Of a stretch of DNA of 31,230 nucleotides, positions 3,466 through 25,491 are shown one piece after another. Both the position numbers and the translations under genes were made by a program. Each line of letters starts with the position of its first letter. The first letter of the stretch is position 1. The stretch comes from a virus: positions 1 through 31,230 of IMG/VR virus record IMGVR_UViG_3300045988_134388; one strand, written 5' to 3'. The notes below the pieces were generated by a model, which was not told the DNA's origin, searched no databases, and was given only the letters and a program-made list of their open reading frames with translations.

Positions 3466-5001
3466 ATGCCACATTACACAAGAGGCATGGGAAGCAGAGC
3501 TTACTGGGAAGAAAGAATGCTAGACAGAGATTTATTTGCTAGACAGACAGAGGATGAAGTTTTAAGAATTATTAATAGCAAATATCAAGCTGCATTCAGA
3601 GAAATCAGAAGAGATTTAAATGATTTCTATAATAGATATGCAACTGAAAATGGATTAACACTTCAACAGCTGCAACAGAGGCTCTCACCTATAGAAATGA
3701 GAGAATATCAAACACAGATGAGAGAATTACAAAGAATGTATTCTCAATATCAAAGTGAAAGAATACTTCAAGAAATGCAAATCTTATCTAATAGAGCTTA
3801 TATAACAAGACAAATGGCTCTATTAGATTCAATAAATATAAAGTTAATAGAAACAGCACACAATGTTCAAATAACTATGCAAGACCATCTAGAAGGCATA
3901 TACAGAAGAGAATATGCTGCTGCTTTAGAAGGACTTGGAGTTAATTCTAATGTAGTTATTCCAACAAGAGCTGTTAGAGAAATAATAGAATATCCTTATG
4001 CTGGAGCAATGTTTTCAGATAGAATCTGGAGAAATAAGGACCAGCTATTAAATTATATTAATGATGATTTAGTTAAAGGAATTATTAAAGGTTCTTCTAT
4101 TCAAAATATGTCTAAGGACCTAATGAATAGATGCAATACTTTATATTATCAAGCAGAAAGATTAGTAAGAACTGAAACTAATTATGCTATGACTCAAGGC
4201 CATTTGAATGGTTATAAAGATGCAGGAATAGAGCAATATCAATTCTTTGCTTTCATAGATAATAGAACATCAAGACAATGTAAAACACTTGATAATATGG
4301 TTTACAATATAAGAGAGGCTCAAGCAGGAACTAATCTGCCTCCTATGCATCCTAATTGCAGGAGTACAATAATTCCTATAGTAAACAGAAAAGCTCCTAT
4401 AGATATAATAGAGAAAGAGCCAGCAAAAACAGATGCAGCTGCTCCAGAAATAAAACATCTTGAATTTAAGGATAAAAAATCAGCAACTGAATATGCTATT
4501 AAAAATCTTGGATTTGAGAAAGTAAACTGGGGAAGAAAACTGACTCAAGAAATGATAAATGATACAATAAGTTCTATAGATAGAGTATTTAATATGTACC
4601 CACAACTTAAAGGCTCTATGAAGGAAATAACAACAGCTTCTGATATGGGAAGAGCTATTGCTTCTGTAAGTTATTATGGAACTCTAAAATTATCTACTTC
4701 TTTATACTATAACCAAAATAAAGCAAAGAGAATTCATACTATAACTCATGAATGCTCTCATATGATAGAGAGAATAAAAGACTGGAACAAATTTGCTCCA
4801 AAAGTAGTTGATGAAGCAATTAACAATCTTGGTTATGATGCAAAGGAAGCAGCAAGTGCAGTTAGAGCAATATCAAGATATGCTACAACTGGAAAAGATG
4901 AATGCATGGCTGAGGCTTTTGCAGAAGCATTAACAGAGGGAGATAAAGCAAGTCCATTGGCTAAGGAGATATTAAAAATATTAAATAAGGAGTTAAGATA
5001 A
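3466..5001 (+). CDS. Head morphogenesis / minor capsid protein (MuF, SPP1 gp7 family) with ~205-aa C-terminal extension carrying HExxH
   Basis: The N-terminal ~305 aa end in the family signature NRTSRQCKTLD...PPMHPNCRSTIIP. The extension (nt ~4381-5001) contains HECSH (nt 4747-4761) and a later acidic ECMAEAFAEAL. Confidence 0.85.
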   Translation: MPHYTRGMGSRAYWEERMLDRDLFARQTEDEVLRIINSKYQAAFREIRRDLNDFYNRYATENGLTLQQLQQRLSPIEMREYQTQMRELQRMYSQYQSERILQEMQILSNRAYITRQMALLDSINIKLIETAHNVQITMQDHLEGIYRREYAAALEGLGVNSNVVIPTRAVREIIEYPYAGAMFSDRIWRNKDQLLNYINDDLVKGIIKGSSIQNMSKDLMNRCNTLYYQAERLVRTETNYAMTQGHLNGYKDAGIEQYQFFAFIDNRTSRQCKTLDNMVYNIREAQAGTNLPPMHPNCRSTIIPIVNRKAPIDIIEKEPAKTDAAAPEIKHLEFKDKKSATEYAIKNLGFEKVNWGRKLTQEMINDTISSIDRVFNMYPQLKGSMKEITTASDMGRAIASVSYYGTLKLSTSLYYNQNKAKRIHTITHECSHMIERIKDWNKFAPKVVDEAINNLGYDAKEAASAVRAISRYATTGKDECMAEAFAEALTEGDKASPLAKEILKILNKELR

Positions 5002-10070: not shown

Positions 10071-12038
10071 GTGAGGAATTTGGAAGATTTAAGGGTGCAA
10101 ATGAGCCTTGACTCCTCTCAATTTAATTCTGGTATTGAGCAAGCAAGCAGCAAAGTTGGCTCACTAAAAGGAAAAATGAGTGAGATTGGGCAGGGCCTAA
10201 AAGATGTTGGTACAAAGATGACTGCTGCTGGTGTTGCTATGGTTGCTTCTGTTGGTGGTATAGTTGCAAAAGGTGCTGAATGGAGTGCTTCTGTTGAATC
10301 AACTCAATTCTTATATAATAATTTAGATAAAACTGTTCAAAAAAGTATTTCAACAAATGCTAAAAGTGCCAAGTCATTAGGTATGACTGAGCAGCAGTAT
10401 AAAAAGAATGCTACAACTATTGCAACATATTATAAAAATATGGGACTAGCTGGAGAAGAGTCTGCAAAGCTAAGTCAAAAAACCATGACTCTTTCAGCTG
10501 ATTTAGCAGCTGTTGCTGATGTTCCAGTAGATGAAGCATTAAGAGATGTTAAATCAGCTCTTATGGGGAACTATGAGGCAGTTGATAAATATGGAGTAAG
10601 CTTATCTGCTAATGCTCTTGAAAACTCTGAGTATGTTAAATCATTAGGGAAAAAGTGGAATCAGCTTTCAGAAAATGAAAAGATGATGGCTGCTTATAAT
10701 GAAATAACAAGACAATCATCATCTGCTCAAGGACTTGCAAAGCAAGAAGCAAGTTCTTTTGGTATGCAGATGAAATTATTAAAAGAATCCATAGAAGAAA
10801 CAGTAGGGCAGCTGGGAAGTGCTTTATTGCCTATATTAGAGCCAATAGTTAAGAAGTTCCAAGAAGTAACTGAAAAAGTATCTGAATGGGTAAAAGAAAA
10901 TCCAAAACTAGCACAAGCAATATTAATGGTGGTTGGTGGACTTGGATTATTTTTAGCTGTAGTTGGTCCATTGGTTGCTGCTGTTGGACTTATAACAATG
11001 GGTATTGCTGGATTATCAGCTGTATCATGGCCAGTTGTAGGAGCTGTTGCTGCTATAACAGCTGTAATAGTTGGATTAGTTGCTGCTGGTATATATCTTT
11101 ATACTCATTGGGAAGAAGTAAAAGCTAAAGCCATTGAAATATGGAATGCTATCAAAGAAGGTGTTTCTAATGCTGTTTCAGCTTTAGGAGACTTTATAAG
11201 TGCAACATGGGATGGCATCAAGGCTTTTCTGAGTACATGCTGGGAACTAATTAAATCAGCTGCAAATACAGTTTGGAATGGAATCAAGACTGTTATTAGT
11301 ACAGCAATAAATATAATAAAAACAATAATAACTACTGTTTTTAATGCTATTAAGCTTTATATTACAACTGTTTTTAATGCTATTAAACTTGTTGCAACTA
11401 CTGTTTGGAATGCTATTAAGACTGTTATTACTACAGTAGTAAATGGAATTAAAACTATTATCACAACTGTTTTTAATGCAGTTAAAAATACTATTACAAC
11501 TGTTTTTAACACTATAAAATCATTAACAACTTCTGTATGGAATGGAATTAAGACTGTTATAAATAGTGCTTGTAATACTGTTAAATCTACAGTAAGCAAT
11601 GTATTTAATGGCTTAAAAAATACTGTTAAAAATGCTTTAGATAGTGTTTACAACACTGCTAAAGGAATATGGAACAAAGTAACTGGAATATTTACAAAGC
11701 CAATTAGTGCTGTTGTAAATTTTGTTAAAGGTGGTAAAGCAGGGAAAGCTGCTAAAGCTTCTTATTCAATGCTTAATCCAAAATCAATTCCACAAGCTCA
11801 ATCTTATGCAGCTGTTTCTAAAAATTATTCTGCATCTGAAAAAATGGCTTCTTACTCAAGAAGTAATTCAGCTGGAATAAATAATTCTAGTAGTTCACCA
11901 ATCTCATTAAGTGCAAATCTTAATAGTTTTGTTCAATTAGATGGAAAAACACTAGCAAAAGCAACTGCTCCATATATGAGTAATGAGCTTGATAAATTAA
12001 CTAAGAGAAAAAATAGATTAGGAGGTGCATTTGCTTAA
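10071..12038 (+). CDS. Tape measure protein
   Basis: 655 aa with a central block of TM helices and a C-terminal 11-aa repeat array. Start is uncertain (GTG 10071, TTG 10080, ATG 10101). Confidence 0.9.
   Translation: MRNLEDLRVQMSLDSSQFNSGIEQASSKVGSLKGKMSEIGQGLKDVGTKMTAAGVAMVASVGGIVAKGAEWSASVESTQFLYNNLDKTVQKSISTNAKSAKSLGMTEQQYKKNATTIATYYKNMGLAGEESAKLSQKTMTLSADLAAVADVPVDEALRDVKSALMGNYEAVDKYGVSLSANALENSEYVKSLGKKWNQLSENEKMMAAYNEITRQSSSAQGLAKQEASSFGMQMKLLKESIEETVGQLGSALLPILEPIVKKFQEVTEKVSEWVKENPKLAQAILMVVGGLGLFLAVVGPLVAAVGLITMGIAGLSAVSWPVVGAVAAITAVIVGLVAAGIYLYTHWEEVKAKAIEIWNAIKEGVSNAVSALGDFISATWDGIKAFLSTCWELIKSAANTVWNGIKTVISTAINIIKTIITTVFNAIKLYITTVFNAIKLVATTVWNAIKTVITTVVNGIKTIITTVFNAVKNTITTVFNTIKSLTTSVWNGIKTVINSACNTVKSTVSNVFNGLKNTVKNALDSVYNTAKGIWNKVTGIFTKPISAVVNFVKGGKAGKAAKASYSMLNPKSIPQAQSYAAVSKNYSASEKMASYSRSNSAGINNSSSSPISLSANLNSFVQLDGKTLAKATAPYMSNELDKLTKRKNRLGGAFA
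11263..11690 (+). repeat. Tandem 33-bp (11-aa) repeats inside the tape measure gene
   Basis: About 12 units of the form T-T-V-F/W-N-A/G-I-K-x-x-I with a periodic aromatic residue. Confidence 0.85.
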
Positions 12039-20732: not shown

Positions 20733-21395
20733 ATGTTATTTACTATAAATGCAGGACACACATTACAAGGAAAAGGAACTGGAGCTGTTGGCTTCTTAAA
20801 TGAATCAAAAGAAAATAGGGCTGTTGTGGCTCATGTTATAAAACTATTAAAACAATTAGGACATTCTGTTATAGATTGCACTATAGATAAATCAGATAAC
20901 TATTTAAAAGAAGCAGTAGCTGCTGCTAATAAGCATAAAGCTGATTTAGCTGTATCTATACATTTTAATAGCTCTGGTGATTCTTCTGCTAATGGAGTTG
21001 AAACATTAGTATATAATTCTAGTAATGACTATACTAATAAATATGCTAATGCTATTAATAAAGAAATAGCTGCTCTTGGTTATAGAAACAGAGGCATAAA
21101 GCAAAGACAAGATTTATACTGGTTAAAGAATACTACATCAAAAGCAATATTAATTGAATGTTGCTTTGTATCTAATAAAGCTGATTCAGATAAATATAAT
21201 GCTGTTAAGATGGCTGAGGCTATAGTTAAAGGTTTAGTAGGTAAATTACCAACTAATAACTCTAACAGCTCTACAGATTCATCTGAGAAGCTATATGCAG
21301 TATGTGTTGGAGCATACTCAAAAGTTAATGCTGATAGAATCCTTTTAGAAGTTAAATCAAAAGGATATAAAGATGCATATTTAATTCCAAGATAA
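20733..21395 (+). CDS. Endolysin: N-acetylmuramoyl-L-alanine amidase (Amidase_3) with C-terminal SPOR-like domain
   Basis: Amidase_3 layout: INAGH...DLAVSIHFNS...GVE...ILIECCFVSN. After a Ser/Asn linker comes LYAVCVGAYSKVNADRILLEVKSKGYKDAYLI, which is SPOR-like. Confidence 0.88.
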   Translation: MLFTINAGHTLQGKGTGAVGFLNESKENRAVVAHVIKLLKQLGHSVIDCTIDKSDNYLKEAVAAANKHKADLAVSIHFNSSGDSSANGVETLVYNSSNDYTNKYANAINKEIAALGYRNRGIKQRQDLYWLKNTTSKAILIECCFVSNKADSDKYNAVKMAEAIVKGLVGKLPTNNSNSSTDSSEKLYAVCVGAYSKVNADRILLEVKSKGYKDAYLIPR

Positions 21396-21399
21396 AAAT

Positions 21400-21440
21400 A
21401 AGGCATATTGTTATTATGACAGTATGCCTTTTCTTTATTT
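21400..21440. terminator. Bidirectional terminator between convergent genes
   Basis: AAGGCATA (21400-07) pairs with TATGCCTT (21423-30). It is flanked by A-rich sequence on the 5' side and TTCTTTATTTT on the 3' side. Confidence 0.65.
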
Positions 21441-21592
21441 TAATTTCTATTAAACCAAAAAGGTAATATACTCAAGAATTTACCAAAGAACATTGTTGCA
21501 AGTATTAACAGTGTTAATGGCCAAAATACAAAAGCTGCAATAATTCCTAATGTGTAGCCCATAGTAATCCAGTTTTGTTTAAAGTTACTCAT
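21440..21592 (-). CDS. 50-aa small membrane protein MSNFKQNWITMGYTLGIIAAFVFWPLTLLILATMFFGKFLSILPFWFNRN
   Basis: Hand-translated. SD GGAAGGTG lies 6 nt before the ATG (complement of 21590-92). It is strongly hydrophobic and convergent with the endolysin gene. Confidence 0.55.
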   Translation of the reverse strand: MSNFKQNWITMGYTLGIIAAFVFWPLTLLILATMFFGKFLSILPFWFNRN

Positions 21593-21705
21593 TAGTTCAC
21601 CTTCCTTTGCTTTTATATGATATTTAACTAATTAAACATTAACTGAATTATATCCTTCTTTACAATAAAAGATACAAAATAGGGGCAACTTTTACAAAGA
21701 AAAGT

Positions 21706-21733
21706 GTCTCAAACTAAGTAGTTGCAAGGCATT
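21706..21733. repeat. Box A copy 1: TCTCAAACTAAGTAGTTGCAAGGCATT
   Basis: Similar to 22130-22157 at about 22 of 27 positions. The AGTAGTnGCAAGG core also occurs at 22251-70. Confidence 0.6.
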
Positions 21734-21757
21734 CAATAGTGTATGAGTAATGGCTAC

Positions 21758-21798
21758 TAGATAATATAATGTATTATTATTATACTTTATATTATCTA
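21758..21798. repeat. Perfect 12-bp inverted repeat TAGATAATATAA / TTATATTATCTA
   Basis: Arms at 21758-69 and 21787-98 with a 17-nt AT-only spacer. Confidence 0.7.
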
Positions 21799-21911
21799 AG
21801 AGAGTTTTCTTAAACAGCCTTCAATCCCAGTCATAGCAACATATACAGCCATTATTTCTGACTGTTTTTGCCCCTTTTATGATTATAGAATATAATATGC
21901 TGCCTTAATTA

Positions 21912-21947
21912 CTGTATAAATGTTATCTGGTTGCAGCATTAAAAGCT
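21912..21947. repeat. Box B copy 1: CTGTATAAATGTTATCTGGTTGCAGCATTAAAAGCT
   Basis: The second copy at 22067-22101 differs by 3 substitutions and 1 indel. The copies are 155 bp apart in direct orientation. Confidence 0.7.
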
Positions 21948-22066
21948 CTATAAGCTCTTACATGATTAACAACTATTCATTATGAGTGAATTATCATAAG
22001 GATGCTCTAACTATTCTGTATGTTTCTCTTATAAGCTAATTTGATTATCTGATGCTGCTATGTTCT

Positions 22067-22101
22067 CTGTATAAATGTTATAATGTTGCAGCATTAAAGC
22101 T
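22067..22101. repeat. Box B copy 2
   Basis: CTGTATAAATGTTATAATGTTGCAGCATTAAAGCT. Confidence 0.7.
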
Positions 22102-22129
22102 TTTAATACAAAAATGAACAAAAAAAGTA

Positions 22130-22157
22130 AGCTCAATCCAAGTAGTAGCAAGGCATT
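22130..22157. repeat. Box A copy 2: GCTCAATCCAAGTAGTAGCAAGGCATT
   Basis: See 21706-21733. Confidence 0.6.
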
Positions 22158-22184
22158 GAGGCACTTTGGTGAATAGGACCCTGA

Positions 22185-22235
22185 ATAGATAACTAATATA
22201 TATTATATTAGCATATCTATTGGGGGGCATAGATA
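22185..22235. repeat. Alternating ATAGATA / TATCTAT / ATAGATA arms with a G6 loop
   Basis: ATAGATA (22185-91), a near-palindromic AT spacer, TATCTAT (22214-20), TGGGGGGC, then ATAGATA (22229-35). The arms could form two mutually exclusive hairpins. Confidence 0.55.
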
Positions 22236-22250
22236 ACAACATGCACCAAC

Positions 22251-22287
22251 AGTAGTATTTGCAAGGTGTTGAGGCCATTTTTATATA
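22251..22287 (+). promoter_or_regulatory. Box A copy 3 overlapping a possible + strand promoter
   Basis: AGTAGTATTTGCAAGGTGTT. TTGCAA, a 17-nt spacer, then TATATA points rightward, antisense to the 22443..22994 gene. Confidence 0.3.
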
Positions 22288-22442
22288 CTCATTTTTGTAA
22301 TTCTTCTGTATAACATGGCTCTTAACAGCTTACAGAAAGCACTTAATAATCTACATGACTATTTATACTTTAACAGCATTAACTAATCATACAGAGCAAC
22401 TGGAGCTTAAATTAAGTATATATAAAGCAAAAAGAGCCACAA

Positions 22443-22994
22443 TTATTTGCAGCTCTCATACTTTTCTTTGTATCTGTAATAAGTAGCTCTACTGATTCCC
22501 ATTTGAGCAACAGCATCTACAACAGACATGCTTTTAGATTCAACTAAGTTATAATAATGAATAAAATCATCTGGAACATCTTTGATTGGCCTTCCCATGT
22601 GTATTCCTTGTTCTTGAGCAGCCTCTATTCCTTTTCTTTGTTGTATTCTTTCATAAGCATCATATATAACATTAATATCTATTAATCCAATGTTAGGAAT
22701 ATCTATTGTATTGTCTTTAAGATTAACAGTCATATCTTTCTTTAATAGCTCTTTATTATCAAGCTTTACTTTATCATCTTCTTTATTATTGTATTTAATT
22801 ATATAATCAGCTGGACTTCCATCTTGATAATATTGGCATCCCATCCATTTAAAACCATAATCTTTTATATATTGCTTTAGGTCCTTAACAGATACACCAA
22901 GAGCATCTGCAAGCTCAGAAGTTTTATATTGTCTATTATTTAATGGCTCTAATATATCTTTTCTAAAATCTAGATTTAATAATTTAGTATTCAT
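22443..22994 (-). CDS. DNA-binding regulator: N-terminal HTH plus C-terminal serine-recombinase E-helix/HTH_7 remnant, no catalytic domain (repressor candidate)
   Basis: The track ORF extends to 23081, but ATG at 22994 has AAAGGAG 9 nt upstream and a promoter at 23021-49. The C-terminus ERIQQRKGIEAAQEQGIHMGRPIK...MGISRATYYRY matches the ER..GI..AK..G...GRPxK + HTH end of resolvases/invertases. There is no YxRVSxxxQ-type catalytic motif upstream. Confidence 0.75.
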   Translation of the reverse strand: MNTKLLNLDFRKDILEPLNNRQYKTSELADALGVSVKDLKQYIKDYGFKWMGCQYYQDGSPADYIIKYNNKEDDKVKLDNKELLKKDMTVNLKDNTIDIPNIGLIDINVIYDAYERIQQRKGIEAAQEQGIHMGRPIKDVPDDFIHYYNLVESKSMSVVDAVAQMGISRATYYRYKEKYESCK

Positions 22995-23095: not shown

Positions 23096-23113
23096 AAATG
23101 TGAGGTGATTTAG

Positions 23114-23686
23114 ATGGAAGAAGCTAAAAAACATGAATGGTATGGACTAGCTCCAACACAAAGAGAGAGATTAGTTTTAGAGCTATTGACTCAAGGATAT
23201 ACAGCAGATATGCTTAATGAATATTTTGATGTAAAAACTAAGAGAGTAATAAATGATTTTATGAATGCCAGAGGCTATAGAAAAAGAGGTAATTCATATG
23301 TACCTAAGAAACAATCAGAGAACATGTCAGCTGCTCCTATAATGCATCAACAAAACAATATGTTGCCTAATATACAAATAGATGATGAGACTATATTCAA
23401 TATAATGAGTTTATCAAAACAGTATGATAAGATACAAGAAATAATAGATTCATATGATAATGGAACATTATCAACTAATAATGGACCAACAGAGAGTTAT
23501 ATTGAAGTAGTGGACACATCAATGCCTATATTAAAAATAGAGGGTGAAATCAAAAGAACTACAATAAGAGTTAATGAGAATATAATGAGTGATTTTAATA
23601 AACTATGGAAAGATAAATACTCTGAATATAAGCAACATGACCTTTTAAATTTAGCTCTACAAAACTTTATAGATAAATATAAATAG
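23114..23686 (+). CDS. Early regulator with two DNA-binding modules (N-terminal LuxR/sigma-region-4-like HTH; C-terminal ribbon-helix-helix-like)
   Basis: LAPTQRERLVLELLTQGYTADMLNEYF is GerE/LuxR-like. RTTIRVNENIMSDFNKLWKD...LLNLALQNFIDKY fits a beta-strand plus two-helix RHH pattern. Confidence 0.7.
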   Translation: MEEAKKHEWYGLAPTQRERLVLELLTQGYTADMLNEYFDVKTKRVINDFMNARGYRKRGNSYVPKKQSENMSAAPIMHQQNNMLPNIQIDDETIFNIMSLSKQYDKIQEIIDSYDNGTLSTNNGPTESYIEVVDTSMPILKIEGEIKRTTIRVNENIMSDFNKLWKDKYSEYKQHDLLNLALQNFIDKYK

Positions 23687-23687
23687 A

Positions 23688-23715
23688 TTACATTTTTTAT
23701 GATTTGTAGTATAAT
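23688..23715 (+). promoter_or_regulatory. Promoter of the small-peptide cassette
   Basis: TTACAT, a 16-nt spacer, then a perfect TATAAT (23710-15). Confidence 0.5.
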
Positions 23716-23796
23716 AATATTTAGAAATTGCAATTTAAGAGTGGGGTTTCATATAATCCAAGTTCCTACAGTAAGTAGGAAGGAGGTGTAATCTAT

Positions 23797-23952
23797 ATGG
23801 AACAAAAGAAAAAACTTATCATAAATATTATAGTTATTCCATTTATTATTGGTTTAGCTGTAAACTTTGTTTATGATATAGTAAAAAACCACTCTTACTG
23901 GCATAAGGGTGGTTTTCAAGTTGAATTCAACATAAAAGTTAAATTTGACTAA
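23797..23952 (+). CDS. 51-aa membrane peptide MEQKKKLIINIIVIPFIIGLAVNFVYDIVKNHSYWHKGGFQVEFNIKVKFD (type I toxin candidate)
   Basis: Hand-translated. SD AGGAAGGAGG lies 10 nt upstream and is half-buried in the hairpin TTCCTAC-AGTAA-GTAGGAA (23763-81). The peptide has a KKK N-terminus, one TM helix and a polar tail. The mRNA ends are complementary. Confidence 0.6.
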   Translation: MEQKKKLIINIIVIPFIIGLAVNFVYDIVKNHSYWHKGGFQVEFNIKVKFD

Positions 23953-24027
23953 TATTATATTGTATATATAGAAACCACACTCTACACCACATAGATTGCA
24001 ATTTCTTTTTTTAAATCTAGAATTTAT
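23883..24027 (-). ncRNA. Predicted antisense RNA (type I antitoxin candidate)
   Basis: A minus-strand TAGATA, 17-nt spacer, TATAAT lies at the complement of 24063-24035. A minus-strand terminator AAAACCAC-16 nt-GTGGTTTT plus extra Ts lies at the complement of 23916-23883. The RNA would overlap the peptide ORF 3' half and its 3' UTR. Confidence 0.35.
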
Positions 24028-24102
24028 TAATTATATTATAACCTACATGAACAAAAATATCTAGTTACTTAAAAAATATTTAAAATTTTTAACAAAAAAG
24101 TA

Positions 24103-24131
24103 TTGCATATGTGTCATAAATGTGGTAATAT
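24103..24131 (+). promoter_or_regulatory. Strong sigma-A-type promoter with extended -10
   Basis: TTGCAT (24103-08), a 17-nt spacer, TGg TAATAT (24123-31). An A/T-rich UP-like tract lies upstream. The spacer contains copy 1 of the 16-nt box. Confidence 0.7.
24110..24125 (+). promoter_or_regulatory. 16-nt box copy 1 (TGTGTCATAAATGTGG)
   Basis: Variant of TGTCTCATAAAGGTGT located in the spacer of the 24103 promoter. Confidence 0.5.
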
Positions 24132-24137
24132 TATGAC

Positions 24138-24990
24138 AAGGAACAAAGAGAACAAATGAAAGTTGCAGGAAACAGCAAGAGAAGTCCAGAGATGGAAAAT
24201 CACAGCAGATAACAAGCTAACCATAGAAAGAGTAAGAGTAGCTCCAACAGTTCCAATAAATCAAACCTAATATGGATTTACTGAATAAGCAAGAATACAA
24301 GGATAATCAGAGCTTATAAAAATAGTTAAGAGCAACAGCACTAAGAACTCAATAAATAATGTGTAGCAAATGAATGAAATTGAAGGCCAGCTCCTAAGAA
24401 AGAGTGATGGCTGAGGGAGACATAGGAGGCACATTAAGAGGATGATTCAAAGAATCACAAGGAGAAAGCTAATAAGACTTTTAAGATACTATAGAATAAA
24501 AGCTACTGGTGAGTCTAGTACACAGAGCAAATAGTAACCATTCTAAGATAATTTCAATTAATAATATAGATAATTTTTCAAGTACATACTTTAATAAGAA
24601 TAGGATAAGAAATAAACTGGCCAGATTTCCTAATATAAAAAATAAAAATATTTTATACTTTTATGTTAATAGAGTAAAAATAATAGTAATATGTAGATGT
24701 AAGCAACTATAACTAAAATGTCTCATAAAGGTGTCATGTGAAACAGTATCACAACATCTTATAAGGAAATAAAAAAATATGAACAAAACTGCATAGAGGT
24801 ATGCACTGTTCATATAGTAAAGTTAAGAGCAAATAGCTCTGAAAAACTTAATATTTGTCTTTATTTATCATTATATGATTAATTTTGATTTTATACCCTG
24901 CTGGAGCTGGAAAGCTCCATTCCCTTTAAGGAACAGAGGACCCAAAGATGATAAGTAGAGATAAATATAAAAAATAAATGGGGGAAATTA
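24138..24990 (+). ncRNA. ORF-free transcript: candidate long ncRNA, long leader, or transcription-activated origin region
   Basis: It lies downstream of the strong promoter. All three + frames are broken by mixed TAA/TAG/TGA, and no RBS-bearing ORF occurs before ATG 24994. Composition resembles a sense strand (purine-rich) up to ~24540, then becomes extremely AT-rich. Confidence 0.35.
24719..24734 (+). promoter_or_regulatory. 16-nt box copy 2 (TGTCTCATAAAGGTGT)
   Basis: Exact consensus, followed by CATGTGAAACAGTAT. This resembles the sequence downstream of copy 4. Confidence 0.5.
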
Positions 24991-24993
24991 CAC

Positions 24994-25491
24994 ATGAAAC
25001 TTTTAAAAATAACAACACAAGGACTTATAGATATAACAAATACAGAGGTTATGAGCTACAACAGAGCTGCAATATTAAAAGAAGGTTGGAGATTAAAGAG
25101 AGCAGGAATTAAAGATGGATTAGCTCAAGCATGGAAAGCAGCAAGAACTCAAATGAATAACCTAAAAGAATTAATAGCTGAAACAGAGCAAGAGAGAGCA
25201 GATTATATAGAAGATTATTCAATGGCATATGAAGTTGCTGGAGATTTAATCTCAGATGGAATAGAGCCAGAGGAAGGTCCAATGGCAGATGCTCTTCATG
25301 ACTATAAAGAAATGGTACAAGTTATGGAAGAAATGGGATTCTTAAATCCACAGTCAGAGCTTGAGGAACTATTCCAACAATTAGTGAAAGAATATCTGGA
25401 TGAAAATAAAGAAGAAACTGTAGAGCAGCCAAAGAGCTTTGCAGAGATACAAAAGGAAAGATTAAAAAAATTACTTGGAGAGGTGGCATAG
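24994..25491 (+). CDS. Hypothetical acidic early protein
   Basis: 165-aa ORF with SD GGGGGA. No motif recognised. Confidence 0.8.
   Translation: MKLLKITTQGLIDITNTEVMSYNRAAILKEGWRLKRAGIKDGLAQAWKAARTQMNNLKELIAETEQERADYIEDYSMAYEVAGDLISDGIEPEEGPMADALHDYKEMVQVMEEMGFLNPQSELEELFQQLVKEYLDENKEETVEQPKSFAEIQKERLKKLLGEVA

Follow-up and report, generated by a model that had tools for sequence, protein, structure and literature searches.

The type I toxin-antitoxin (TA) loci CD2517.1-RCd8, CD0956.2-RCd10 and CD2907.1-RCd9 of Clostridioides difficile, together with their phage homologues, are the closest described systems to the element studied here. Membrane localisation, duplex formation, in vitro cleavage by RNase III and stabilisation of prophages have been demonstrated for these modules, and rescue by the antitoxin is reported to be cognate-only. 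Toxicity of the peptides and rescue by the antitoxins have also been demonstrated (PMC5961336, PMC7699646). Mapping by rapid amplification of cDNA ends (RACE) gave toxin mRNAs of 298-306 nt with 5' untranslated regions (UTRs) of 83-88 nt (Maikova et al., PMC5961336), and short antitoxins RCd8, RCd9 and RCd10 of 134-140 nt with overlaps of 131-134 nt, while the RNA structures appear in the original papers only as 'data not shown'. The window analysed in this study is the whole stretch of positions 1 to 31,230 (31,230 nt) of the IMG/VR virus record IMGVR_UViG_3300045988_134388, and it carries a self-contained unit of ~340 bp which is predicted to express a small membrane peptide from a tightly folded mRNA and an antisense RNA of ~146 nt from the opposite strand. 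In our view this unit is very probably a type I TA module of the kind known from C. difficile phages, and it would be an accessory cassette in the genome of a phage of uncultured gut Clostridia. A sequence-only reading of the window had recognised the architecture of type I TA loci and claimed no homology; the comparative analysis recovers the architecture, and the disclaimer is to be corrected, as homology to the C. difficile family was found. The results support the view that this previously unannotated cassette is a divergent member of a known phage-borne kind. What is new here is the extension of the family beyond C. difficile and the covariation-backed structure of both RNAs, including the closure of the mRNA ends and a stem-loop specific to the antisense RNA.

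Like the C. difficile modules, the window cassette has convergent RNAs, here predicted, with a 3' overlap of ~130 nt, a sequestered Shine-Dalgarno (SD) sequence and a phage or prophage location. In both, the antisense terminator lies within the toxin open reading frame (ORF) at the K(N/S)HS...K(S/G)G codons, the antisense -10 box follows directly after the sense U-tract, and the UTR motifs AATCTAAGAGTGGRGTTYCATA and CTCTAC..ATAGATTG are present. The sizes predicted in the window for mRNA, 5' UTR, antitoxin and overlap (~291, 74-75, ~146 and ~130 nt) agree with the published ones within ~15 nt. The N-terminus of the window peptide is MEQKKK+IIVIPFIIGL, whereas that of the C. difficile toxins is MDNFLLNxLAGVIAS, and the window peptide lacks their Lys-rich C-terminal tail. 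Unlike the CRISPR-associated C. difficile group, the cassette has no adjacent CRISPR array, and no spaced direct-repeat array is present anywhere in the window. The outer AGCAAGRR/YYCTTGCT helix of the C. difficile RNAs is missing here, and the hosts are uncultured Clostridia, represented by metagenome-assembled genomes (MAGs) of Tyzzerella and Peptostreptococcaceae, instead of C. difficile. No sigma-B promoter was seen in the window, although no search was aimed at one.

The Bacillus subtilis prophage systems txpA/RatA, bsrG/SR4, bsrE/SR5 and yonT/SR6 also combine a small transmembrane (TM) toxin, a convergent 3'-overlapping antisense RNA and a partly sequestered SD, and they are located in prophages where the present cassette is located in a phage. 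SR4 reportedly induces refolding of the bsrG mRNA, and the lower start-site accessibility of our window model with the 3' overlap occupied resembles that behaviour. However, there is no peptide or RNA homology to these systems, the only match being an insignificant one between a remote family member and Fst. For the txpA, bsrG, bsrE and yonT mRNAs no helix that closes the 5' end on the 3' end has, to our knowledge, been described. Such a closure, by fold-back or long-distance interaction, is found in the full-length toxin mRNAs of hok/Sok from plasmid R1 and aapA1/IsoA1 from Helicobacter pylori, where it keeps the mRNA stable and translationally inert. Both of these direct their antisense against the 5' region and require trimming at the 3' end for activation, whereas the predicted window antisense overlaps the 3' 130 nt and covers the 3' closure arms; their hosts are Gram-negative, sequence homology is absent and the window has no mok-like leader ORF, so the principle of closure alone is common.

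Homology to the C. difficile type I toxins

The window peptide of 51 residues consists of MEQKKK, a hydrophobic helix and a polar tail, as the sequence-only reading had noticed, and AlphaFold (AF2) predicts one long helix over residues 2-32 (predicted local distance difference test score 77-90) with an uncertain tail. Its ATG is preceded at 10 nt by a GGAGG SD core. Start, stop, SD and a length of 43-58 amino acids (aa) are retained in all related loci at 30-60% divergence, and pN/pS, the ratio of non-synonymous to synonymous differences, was 0.14-0.62 in 21 pairwise comparisons, which points to a coding ORF under purifying selection. The hydrophobic N-terminal half lies outside the strongest RNA hairpins and is nevertheless conserved as a TM segment. 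Hence a hydrophobic peptide shorter than 60 aa, with its own ribosome-binding site and under selection as a protein, is present as in other type I TA loci. An identical peptide is encoded by 235 public contigs, where its sole annotation is 'hypothetical protein'. It matched no family in Pfam (thus no Hok or AapA), NCBIfam gave no Fst, TxpA, Hok or AapA match, and the Fst/Ldr, TxpA and BsrG profiles were not matched in either database; a tblastn search of the peptide against phages gave chance matches only.

The top NCBIfam match was NF047374, 'CD_typeI_toxin' (type I toxin-antitoxin system toxin), with 17.1 bits and an E value of 0.0054, and intermediate members of the family found here reached 30-40 bits. 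A tblastn search with a divergent member matched C. difficile phages, and the C. difficile phage form occurs in 44 Clostridioides phage records. The peptides of phiCD6356 and phiCD24-1 scored 95 and 92 bits against NF047374, and their protein cluster bears the name 'type I toxin-antitoxin system toxin'. When the profile of the window subfamily was compared by hhalign with a profile of six peptides from C. difficile phages, the probability was 96.2% (E 2.2e-9) over residues 20-50, and the motif G-x4-N-x-x-YDKxKNHSxxxKSGxxxEFxxKxKF is common to the window family and the C. difficile toxins. The nucleotides of the UTRs are related as well. In the loci from C. difficile phages the 5' UTR has AATCTAAGAGTGGAGTTCATA and the 3' UTR has CTCTAC..ATAGATTG; a U-run accompanies the internal hairpin on the minus strand, and TGGTATAAT comes on that strand immediately behind the sense T-run; the motif GAGTGGRGTTYC of the 5' arm of helix P2 (described below) is shared between them and the window. 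When the rule used to predict transcript ends was applied to phiCD6356, it gave an mRNA of 299 nt with a 5' UTR of 88 nt. Thus common ancestry of the peptide was found together with agreement in RNA layout, dimensions and homologous UTRs, as expected for members of one superfamily, and judged by both peptide and UTR nucleotides the cassette is a distant relative of the validated CD2517.1/CD0956.2-RCd8/9/10 family. In several C. difficile phage records the toxin ORF bears no annotation at all.

Related loci were collected with the window peptide, which found four IMG/VR contigs and seven protein clusters of 78-94% identity, and with a profile, which found fifteen more distant representatives; contigs from Tyzzerella and Peptostreptococcaceae MAGs carry a related peptide. 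From their DNA a set of 18 loci was assembled (the window and 17 related cassettes, given L numbers below). Identity to the window is 73-87% inside the cassette and 55-66% in the 200-nt flanks, the background between unrelated 200-mers being 61%, and the aligned homology runs from the sense -10 box to the minus-strand -10 box. The neighbours vary and include AbrB-like, HTH (helix-turn-helix), FtsK-like, sigma-70-domain and resolvase genes as well as bacterial MAG contigs. High identity inside, flanks at background and limits that coincide with the two -10 boxes argue for a bounded, self-contained cassette located in many gene neighbourhoods, which answers a check proposed in the sequence-only reading: the unit does recur, in 17 other loci with unrelated flanks. 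Two loci, L013 (224-438) and L016 (3954-4170), are mosaic: L013 matches the L002 type exactly as far as the internal hairpin, beyond which it has a different C-terminal tail (…SSSANRKSGLEFEF…), 3' UTR and local terminator (GAAACCAC…GTGGTTTC) in common with L016 and P0018, and L016 has an unrelated 5' UTR. Recombination inside the cassette therefore seems to occur. Searches by other routes were negative: a blastn search of the GenBank phages with 23100-25000 found nothing, tblastn of a 725-aa neighbour gave only remote matches, the 190-aa upstream protein had no related loci in IMG/VR, and PADLOC reported nothing relevant. Rfam had nothing at the gathering threshold and, at E<=1, a single chance PyrR match (E 0.92), and a scan of IMG/VR for the motif TAAGAGTGGNGTTYCATA returned the four known contigs and six chance matches without a cassette.

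Fold and covariation of the sense and antisense RNAs

The sense RNA of ~290 nt has a minimum free energy (MFE) of -91.4 kcal/mol, as compared to -49 ± 4.4 kcal/mol in shuffled sequences (z = -9.5), and none of 200 shuffles was as stable. The MFE structure of the window RNA and its centroid structure alike show closure of the 5' and 3' ends, and each of the 18 loci, folded alone, forms 14-20 bp between its first 20 and last 32 nt. The exact complementarity of the two ends that had been noticed earlier (23723-34 with 23995-24006) extends to 15 nt at 93% (23723-37 with 23992-24006), the second, inner pairing of 12 in 13 positions holds as well, and the proposal that the whole mRNA closes on itself is thereby supported. 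Closure is also predicted in L018 and L026-L030 (LIBA2945, phiCD6356, phiCD38-2, phiCDHM13, phiCD24-1 and HGP05), where the outer AGCAAGRR/YYCTTGCT helix is added to the shared inner helices; we did not find it described in the C. difficile TA papers PMC5961336, PMC7699646 and PMC6563280. The positions of all features are collected in Table 1.

Covariation was analysed on 16 aligned sequences by RNAalifold and pair counting, with 500 shuffles as the control. The consensus contains a 16-bp terminal helix (P1), a 10-bp helix (P2), the SD hairpin with its extension onto GGAGG, and three hairpins internal to the ORF. In the sense helices 95.0% of cells were paired, against 90.6 ± 0.4% in the shuffles; compensatory changes on both sides were found at 18 pairs (10 ± 1.9 in shuffles) and in 58 cells (17.6 in shuffles), and no shuffle out of 500 equalled the data in any of these measures. 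Sliding the partners by 1-3 columns reduced the paired cells to 36-50%. The complementary ends, whose conservation in homologous loci the sequence-only reading had named as a test, thus pass it with clear covariation. In P1 the window pairs TTGCAA with TTGCAA, L001 pairs TTATAA with TTATAA, L014 pairs CTTCAA with TTGAAG and L017 pairs GCTATA with TATAGC, while L013 maintains the helix through three U·G pairs. The sense helices hold 117 G·U cells and only 12 A·C cells. Since a G·U cell pairs in the plus-strand RNA alone and an A·C cell would pair in the minus strand alone, an asymmetry that inverted repeats acting at the DNA level would not show, this argues that selection acts on the plus-strand RNA and not on DNA inverted repeats.

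The SD region is sequestered in a hairpin domain. The hairpin TTCCTAC, AGTAA, GTAGGAA covers the AGGAA of the SD stretch AGGAAGGAGG, as proposed earlier from the letters alone; the GGAGG core lies just outside this hairpin yet is captured by an extension helix, and it was paired at three or more of its five positions in 17 of the 18 MFE folds. The hairpin itself is 96% paired and shows C-G to U-A double changes at two pairs. The start codon is predicted to be sequestered too, by the element UUUCAUAUA that follows P2 and is complementary to the start-codon region UAUAUGGAA: the AUG was fully paired in 14 of the 18 MFE folds, with this element as partner in 11 of them. The UUUCAUAUA/UAUAUGGAA helix has little covariation and both of its sides are conserved. 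With the 130-nt overlap forced single-stranded, as a proxy for bound antisense, AUG accessibility was unchanged or lower in 11 of 12 loci; for the window AUG, the probability of being unpaired fell from 0.35 to 0.12, and the released 5' UTR formed a three-tier hairpin covering both AUG and SD. For this reason antisense binding would not be expected to open the message. A 30-aa frame upstream of the toxin (23699-23791, plus strand, …RVGFHIIQVPTVSRKEV) begins upstream of the predicted transcription start and is the translated 5' UTR, and in a distant homologue, the protein P0009 (which begins VGFHIIQVPTVSREEVSY), a gene caller has joined the 5'-UTR frame to the toxin; the apparent protein conservation in this frame is RNA conservation.

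On the minus strand a perfect TATAAT follows the sense T-run at ~10-40 nt in 18 of 18 loci in spite of unrelated flanks, the background probability being 0.079 per 45 nt. The RNA predicted from it, for which ~145 nt had been proposed before, folds into three elements, namely a stem-loop at the 5' end, a hairpin in the middle and the terminator. In the same 16 sequences 95.9% of the antisense cells were paired and 12 of 29 pairs were double-changed, which none of the 500 shuffles equalled. In the 5' stem-loop the complements of the P1 and P2 3' arms pair with each other, with ~28 G·U cells against 1 A·C cell in the minus orientation, and the sense mirror hairpin is the less stable of the two in 17 of the 18 loci (typically -11 to -15 for the stem-loop against -3 to -8 kcal/mol for the mirror). 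Because these G·U pairs occur only in the antisense orientation, the structure would exist only if the minus strand is transcribed. Both RNAs therefore carry strand-specific covariation, and in silico a cis antisense RNA with its own promoter and terminator is present.

The minus-strand hairpin with its T-run inside the ORF, another element of the sequence-only reading, is also backed by covariation, and the U-run follows it on the minus strand only. The hairpin is retained in L013, L014 and L022 although the peptide sequence differs there, and L013, L016 and L022 have a different, compensated terminator stem. In L014, from a Tyzzerella MAG (4084-4120), a single nucleotide is missing where the 5' arm starts and the loop has an additional one; this compensated frameshift rewrites eight residues (KNHSYWHKGGF to KSTLTPNKSGF) and leaves the stem nucleotides unchanged. 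In this segment of L014 the constraint on the RNA appears to outweigh that on the protein.

Table 1. Features of the cassette in the window, with strand and basis
Feature	Position	Strand	Details	Basis
Sense (toxin mRNA) promoter	23688..23715	+	TTACAT 23688-93, spacer 16 nt, TATAAT 23710-15	sequence; promoter scan
Predicted toxin mRNA	23722..24012	+	~291 nt; 5' UTR 74-75 nt	fold; end-prediction rule
P1 5' arm (terminal closing helix)	23722..23737	+	partner 23992-24007	16 bp; 95.7% cells paired; 6 compensatory double-change pairs
P2 5' arm	23738..23750	+	AGAGTGGGGTTTC; partner 23971-83, 12/13 paired	98% cells paired; G·U 17 vs A·C 1
Predicted start-codon-masking element	23747..23755	+	UUUCAUAUA, complementary to start-codon region UAUAUGGAA (23794-23802)	antisense-masked window model
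SD-sequestering domain	23756..23787	+	apical hairpin 23763-69/23775-81; extension 23756-58/23785-87 onto GGAGG core 23782-86	fold; covariation
51-aa ORF	23797..23952	+	ATG 23797 to TAA 23952; MEQKKK, TM helix, polar tail	homologues
ORF hairpin 1, sense RNA	23829..23862	+	11 pairs, 4 with double changes	G·U 30 vs A·C 4
ORF hairpin 3	23920..23949	+	also forms in antisense RNA (23926-43)	covariation
3' arms of P2 and P1	23971..24007	+	P2 23971-83, linker ACACCACA 23984-91, P1 23992-24007	fold; covariation
T7 tract, presumed toxin mRNA 3' end	24006..24012	+	T4-T8 run after P1 3' arm in all loci	sequence
Antisense promoter	24035..24063	-	TAGATA 24063-58, spacer 17 nt, TATAAT 24040-35	promoter scan; conservation
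Predicted antisense (antitoxin) RNA	23883..24028	-	~146 nt, start near 24028, overlapping last ~130 nt of toxin mRNA	fold -34.8 kcal/mol, z -3.7
Antisense 5' stem-loop	23971..24005	-	P1 3'-arm complement pairs P2 3'-arm complement	97.4% paired; 5 double-change pairs
Antisense intrinsic terminator	23883..23916	-	13-bp hairpin (one C·A mismatch; ~23885-23916) then U6; in ORF, codons K30-F40	96% paired; 5 double-change pairs

Proposed mechanism and alternative explanations

In the scheme that we infer, transcript ends, toxicity, neutralisation, relative half-lives, the RNases and the biological role all enter as expectations. A constitutive-looking promoter would give the ~291-nt mRNA for a single-pass membrane peptide, and this mRNA would fold shut, with its first ~30 nt paired to its last ~37 nt through P1 and P2 just before the U-tract, and with SD and AUG within a stacked 5'-UTR hairpin domain. 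Because the ends are paired and the initiation site lies inside this domain, the full-length mRNA is expected to be stable and poorly translated; an end-paired mRNA is at least compatible with high stability. The convergent promoter beyond the sense terminator would give the antisense RNA, which would traverse the 3' UTR, continue over the final ~23 codons and stop at the terminator in the ORF. The linker ACACCACA between the P1 and P2 3' arms is the least conserved part of the 3' UTR, is the only long single-stranded stretch of the closed 3' region, and complements the apical loop in the 5' stem-loop of the antisense RNA. We propose it as the site of first contact and the specificity determinant, to be followed by the complementary hairpin loops and then by a duplex of ~130 bp. 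By analogy with C. difficile and B. subtilis, the duplex would be cut by RNase III and/or would lock the 5' UTR closed, so that no peptide is made. If the supply of antisense stopped, e.g. on loss of the element, the longer-lived mRNA would yield peptide and growth would be arrested. The linker and its loop offer a concrete recognition element, consistent with the reported cognate-only rescue, which they could explain.

Several points weigh against the assignment to the C. difficile type of TA module. NF047374 is an equivalog model with a curated cut-off of 60 bits, so that the window peptide with its 17 bits falls far below it and outside the curated family, and the homologous residues 20-50 overlap nucleotides constrained by RNA hairpins, so the protein signal may be partly RNA conservation. 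The Lys-rich C-terminus of the C. difficile toxins is absent: the window tail ...FNIKVKFD has two Lys and ends in Asp, the Lys cluster being N-terminal (MEQKKK), while in some further family members the C-terminus is KKKK, KRK or IKK. Toxicity of the peptide and its neutralisation by the antisense are expected for the window subfamily by analogy with its homologues. Both -35 boxes are weak and unconserved, the sense one included, although the perfect sense TATAAT keeps an equal distance upstream of the P1 5' arm in related loci. In this AT-rich region 20 promoter-like hits were found against 26 expected in shuffles, without enrichment, and single hexamers of this kind consequently say little. 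All six sequence points of the sequence-only reading, including both promoters and the T7 tract after the fold-back, are present where it placed them; it is the fold and the conservation that exceed chance, and the promoter-like hits by themselves do not. The terminator scan was negative for the window's sense RNA, the local hairpin before the T7 tract having only -3.4 kcal/mol and no strong G+C stem, and for that reason sense termination would have to rely on P1 itself or on a transient AGAAA/UUUCU hairpin. The starts and 3' ends of both RNAs are predicted positions; the starts of L001, L002, L013, L017 and L019 were set by hand, as their P1 arm contains TATAAT, and L029 and L030 were read by eye. 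Finally, searches of the window turned up neither an integrase nor a partition gene nor a CRISPR array, and a lysogenic or plasmid state, the setting that would suit an addiction module, is thus hypothetical.

The absence of recognised lysogeny genes would also suit another explanation, in which the RNA pair is real and the peptide, instead of being an addiction-type toxin, is a regulated phage membrane protein (for lysis timing, holin-like or for superinfection exclusion) whose synthesis is restrained by mRNA fold and antisense until a given stage of infection. The location of the cassette, which borders the early genes and follows the amidase lysis gene ~2.3 kb downstream, and the peptide's lack of the Lys-rich C-terminus of proven toxins would fit. 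We nevertheless regard it as unlikely, for the bounded cassette occurs in many unrelated contexts and is not tied to lysis genes, and the C. difficile homologues act as TA pairs and stabilise prophages. It is far less probable that a functional antisense is absent and that the minus-strand signals reflect AT-rich chance or the mirror of the sense structure. Promoter-like hits are indeed not enriched and every sense hairpin is mirrored on the other strand, but the perfect TATAAT in 18 of 18 loci with unrelated flanks stands against an expectation of 0.079, the 5' stem-loop depends on G·U pairs that are A·C mismatches in the sense RNA and is stabler than its mirror in 17 of the 18, only on the minus strand does a U-run come after the internal hairpin, and the C. 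difficile homologues have mapped antisense RNAs of equal size.

Slighter still is the chance that the sense transcript is a structured non-coding RNA in which the 51-codon ORF is incidental. Much of the ORF does lie in conserved hairpins, and the compensated frameshift of L014 keeps the hairpin nucleotides while changing eight residues; against this, an ORF of 43-58 aa with strong SD, start and stop is present in every locus in spite of the divergence, its pN/pS range speaks for coding, and the hydrophobic N-terminal half is conserved as TM outside the strongest hairpins. The sequence-only reading had itself offered an alternative, a miniature mobile cassette with terminal inverted repeats or a palindromic protein site, in which the repeats act as DNA and the RNA fold is a by-product, and this we reject as the least probable explanation of all. 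The unit is bounded with flanks unrelated between loci, its outer 12-mer is nearly palindromic, and a related palindrome, AAATCTAGAWTT, lies at 22966 and 24013, as such an element might have. However, the arms accept G·U and not A·C (117 against 12), which makes sense only for a plus-strand RNA, and P1 of L013 is held by its U·G pairs; the limits of homology, which for a miniature inverted-repeat transposable element should be the repeats, coincide with the -10 boxes of the two promoters; neither a target-site duplication nor a transposase accompanies the unit; and conservation of the 24013 palindrome does not extend to other loci.

With the type I TA module as the preferred explanation, the C. 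difficile family extends to phages and MAGs of uncultured gut Clostridia, the 18 divergent loci now give strong covariation for both RNAs, and 5'-3' closure, known from hok and AapA1, becomes a conserved trait of this Gram-positive family. RNA architecture can annotate such cassettes where protein models fail, and toxins of the NF047374-type family of C. difficile are already in use as counter-selection markers. A more speculative joint reading, which we would call possible though doubtful, has three parts: the ~36 nt of 23971-24007 would be under triple selection, as the halves of this segment pair with the 5' end of the mRNA and their complements pair with each other in the antisense through strand-specific G·U; the helix of first and last nucleotides that closes the mRNA would double as the stem of the sense terminator; and K(N/S)HS...K(S/G)G, the peptide motif best conserved across the C. 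difficile-type toxin superfamily, would be conserved mainly as code for the antitoxin terminator hairpin. If it were true, the family would be a model of dual-strand, dual-code constraint, and protein profiles alone could not reliably trace such toxin families.

Genome context and minor observations

The window is a siphovirus-like genome segment with terminase, an SPP1-type portal, tail genes and an amidase (20733-21395). After the amidase follow a minus-strand HTH protein, the 190-aa PHROG-2727 protein, whose gene stops at 23686 directly before the sense -35 box TTACAT, then the cassette, a promoter at 24103 and early or replication genes of unknown family. A perfect palindrome, AAATCTAGATTT, lies at 22966-22977 within the 5' part of the minus-strand HTH gene, and a copy with one mismatch, AAATCTAGAATT, at 24013-24024 coincides with the predicted antisense start; it could be a window-specific operator that puts the antitoxin under phage control. 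This candidate was set aside: the window holds three sites of the palindrome AAATCTAGAWTT against 0.57 expected, 2 of 100 shuffles reach three, and other cassettes do not retain the copy at 24013.

Behind the promoter at 24103 (TTGCAT-17-TAATAT, with a TG upstream) come ~870 nt without an ORF over 67 aa (24103-24990). The plus strand of this stretch is A/purine-rich, with an AT skew of +0.2 to +0.38, and a terminator-like hairpin at 24902-19 ends it just before a 165-aa gene at 24994. Rfam gave no match on 24103-24990, a stretch that may serve as a long leader or as a non-coding RNA.

Nearby lies another small membrane peptide, a very hydrophobic 50-aa ORF (MSNFKQNWITMGYTLGIIAAFVFWPLTLLILATMFFGKFLSILPFWFNRN) on the minus strand at 21440-21592, with a strong SD and convergent to the amidase gene; a PHROG search of it gave no match. 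Between the lysis genes and the minus-strand HTH gene, 21690-22300 is poor in ORFs and contains diverged direct repeats of 56 nt (21888/22043, 77% identity) and 40 nt (21694/22118, 78% identity) as well as a 50-nt imperfect inverted repeat (21728-21828), and these repeats may be duplicated small-RNA or regulatory units. Elsewhere in the window, the gene for a 655-aa protein (10071-12038) contains four copies of a 33-nt (11-codon) tandem repeat at 11328-11492.

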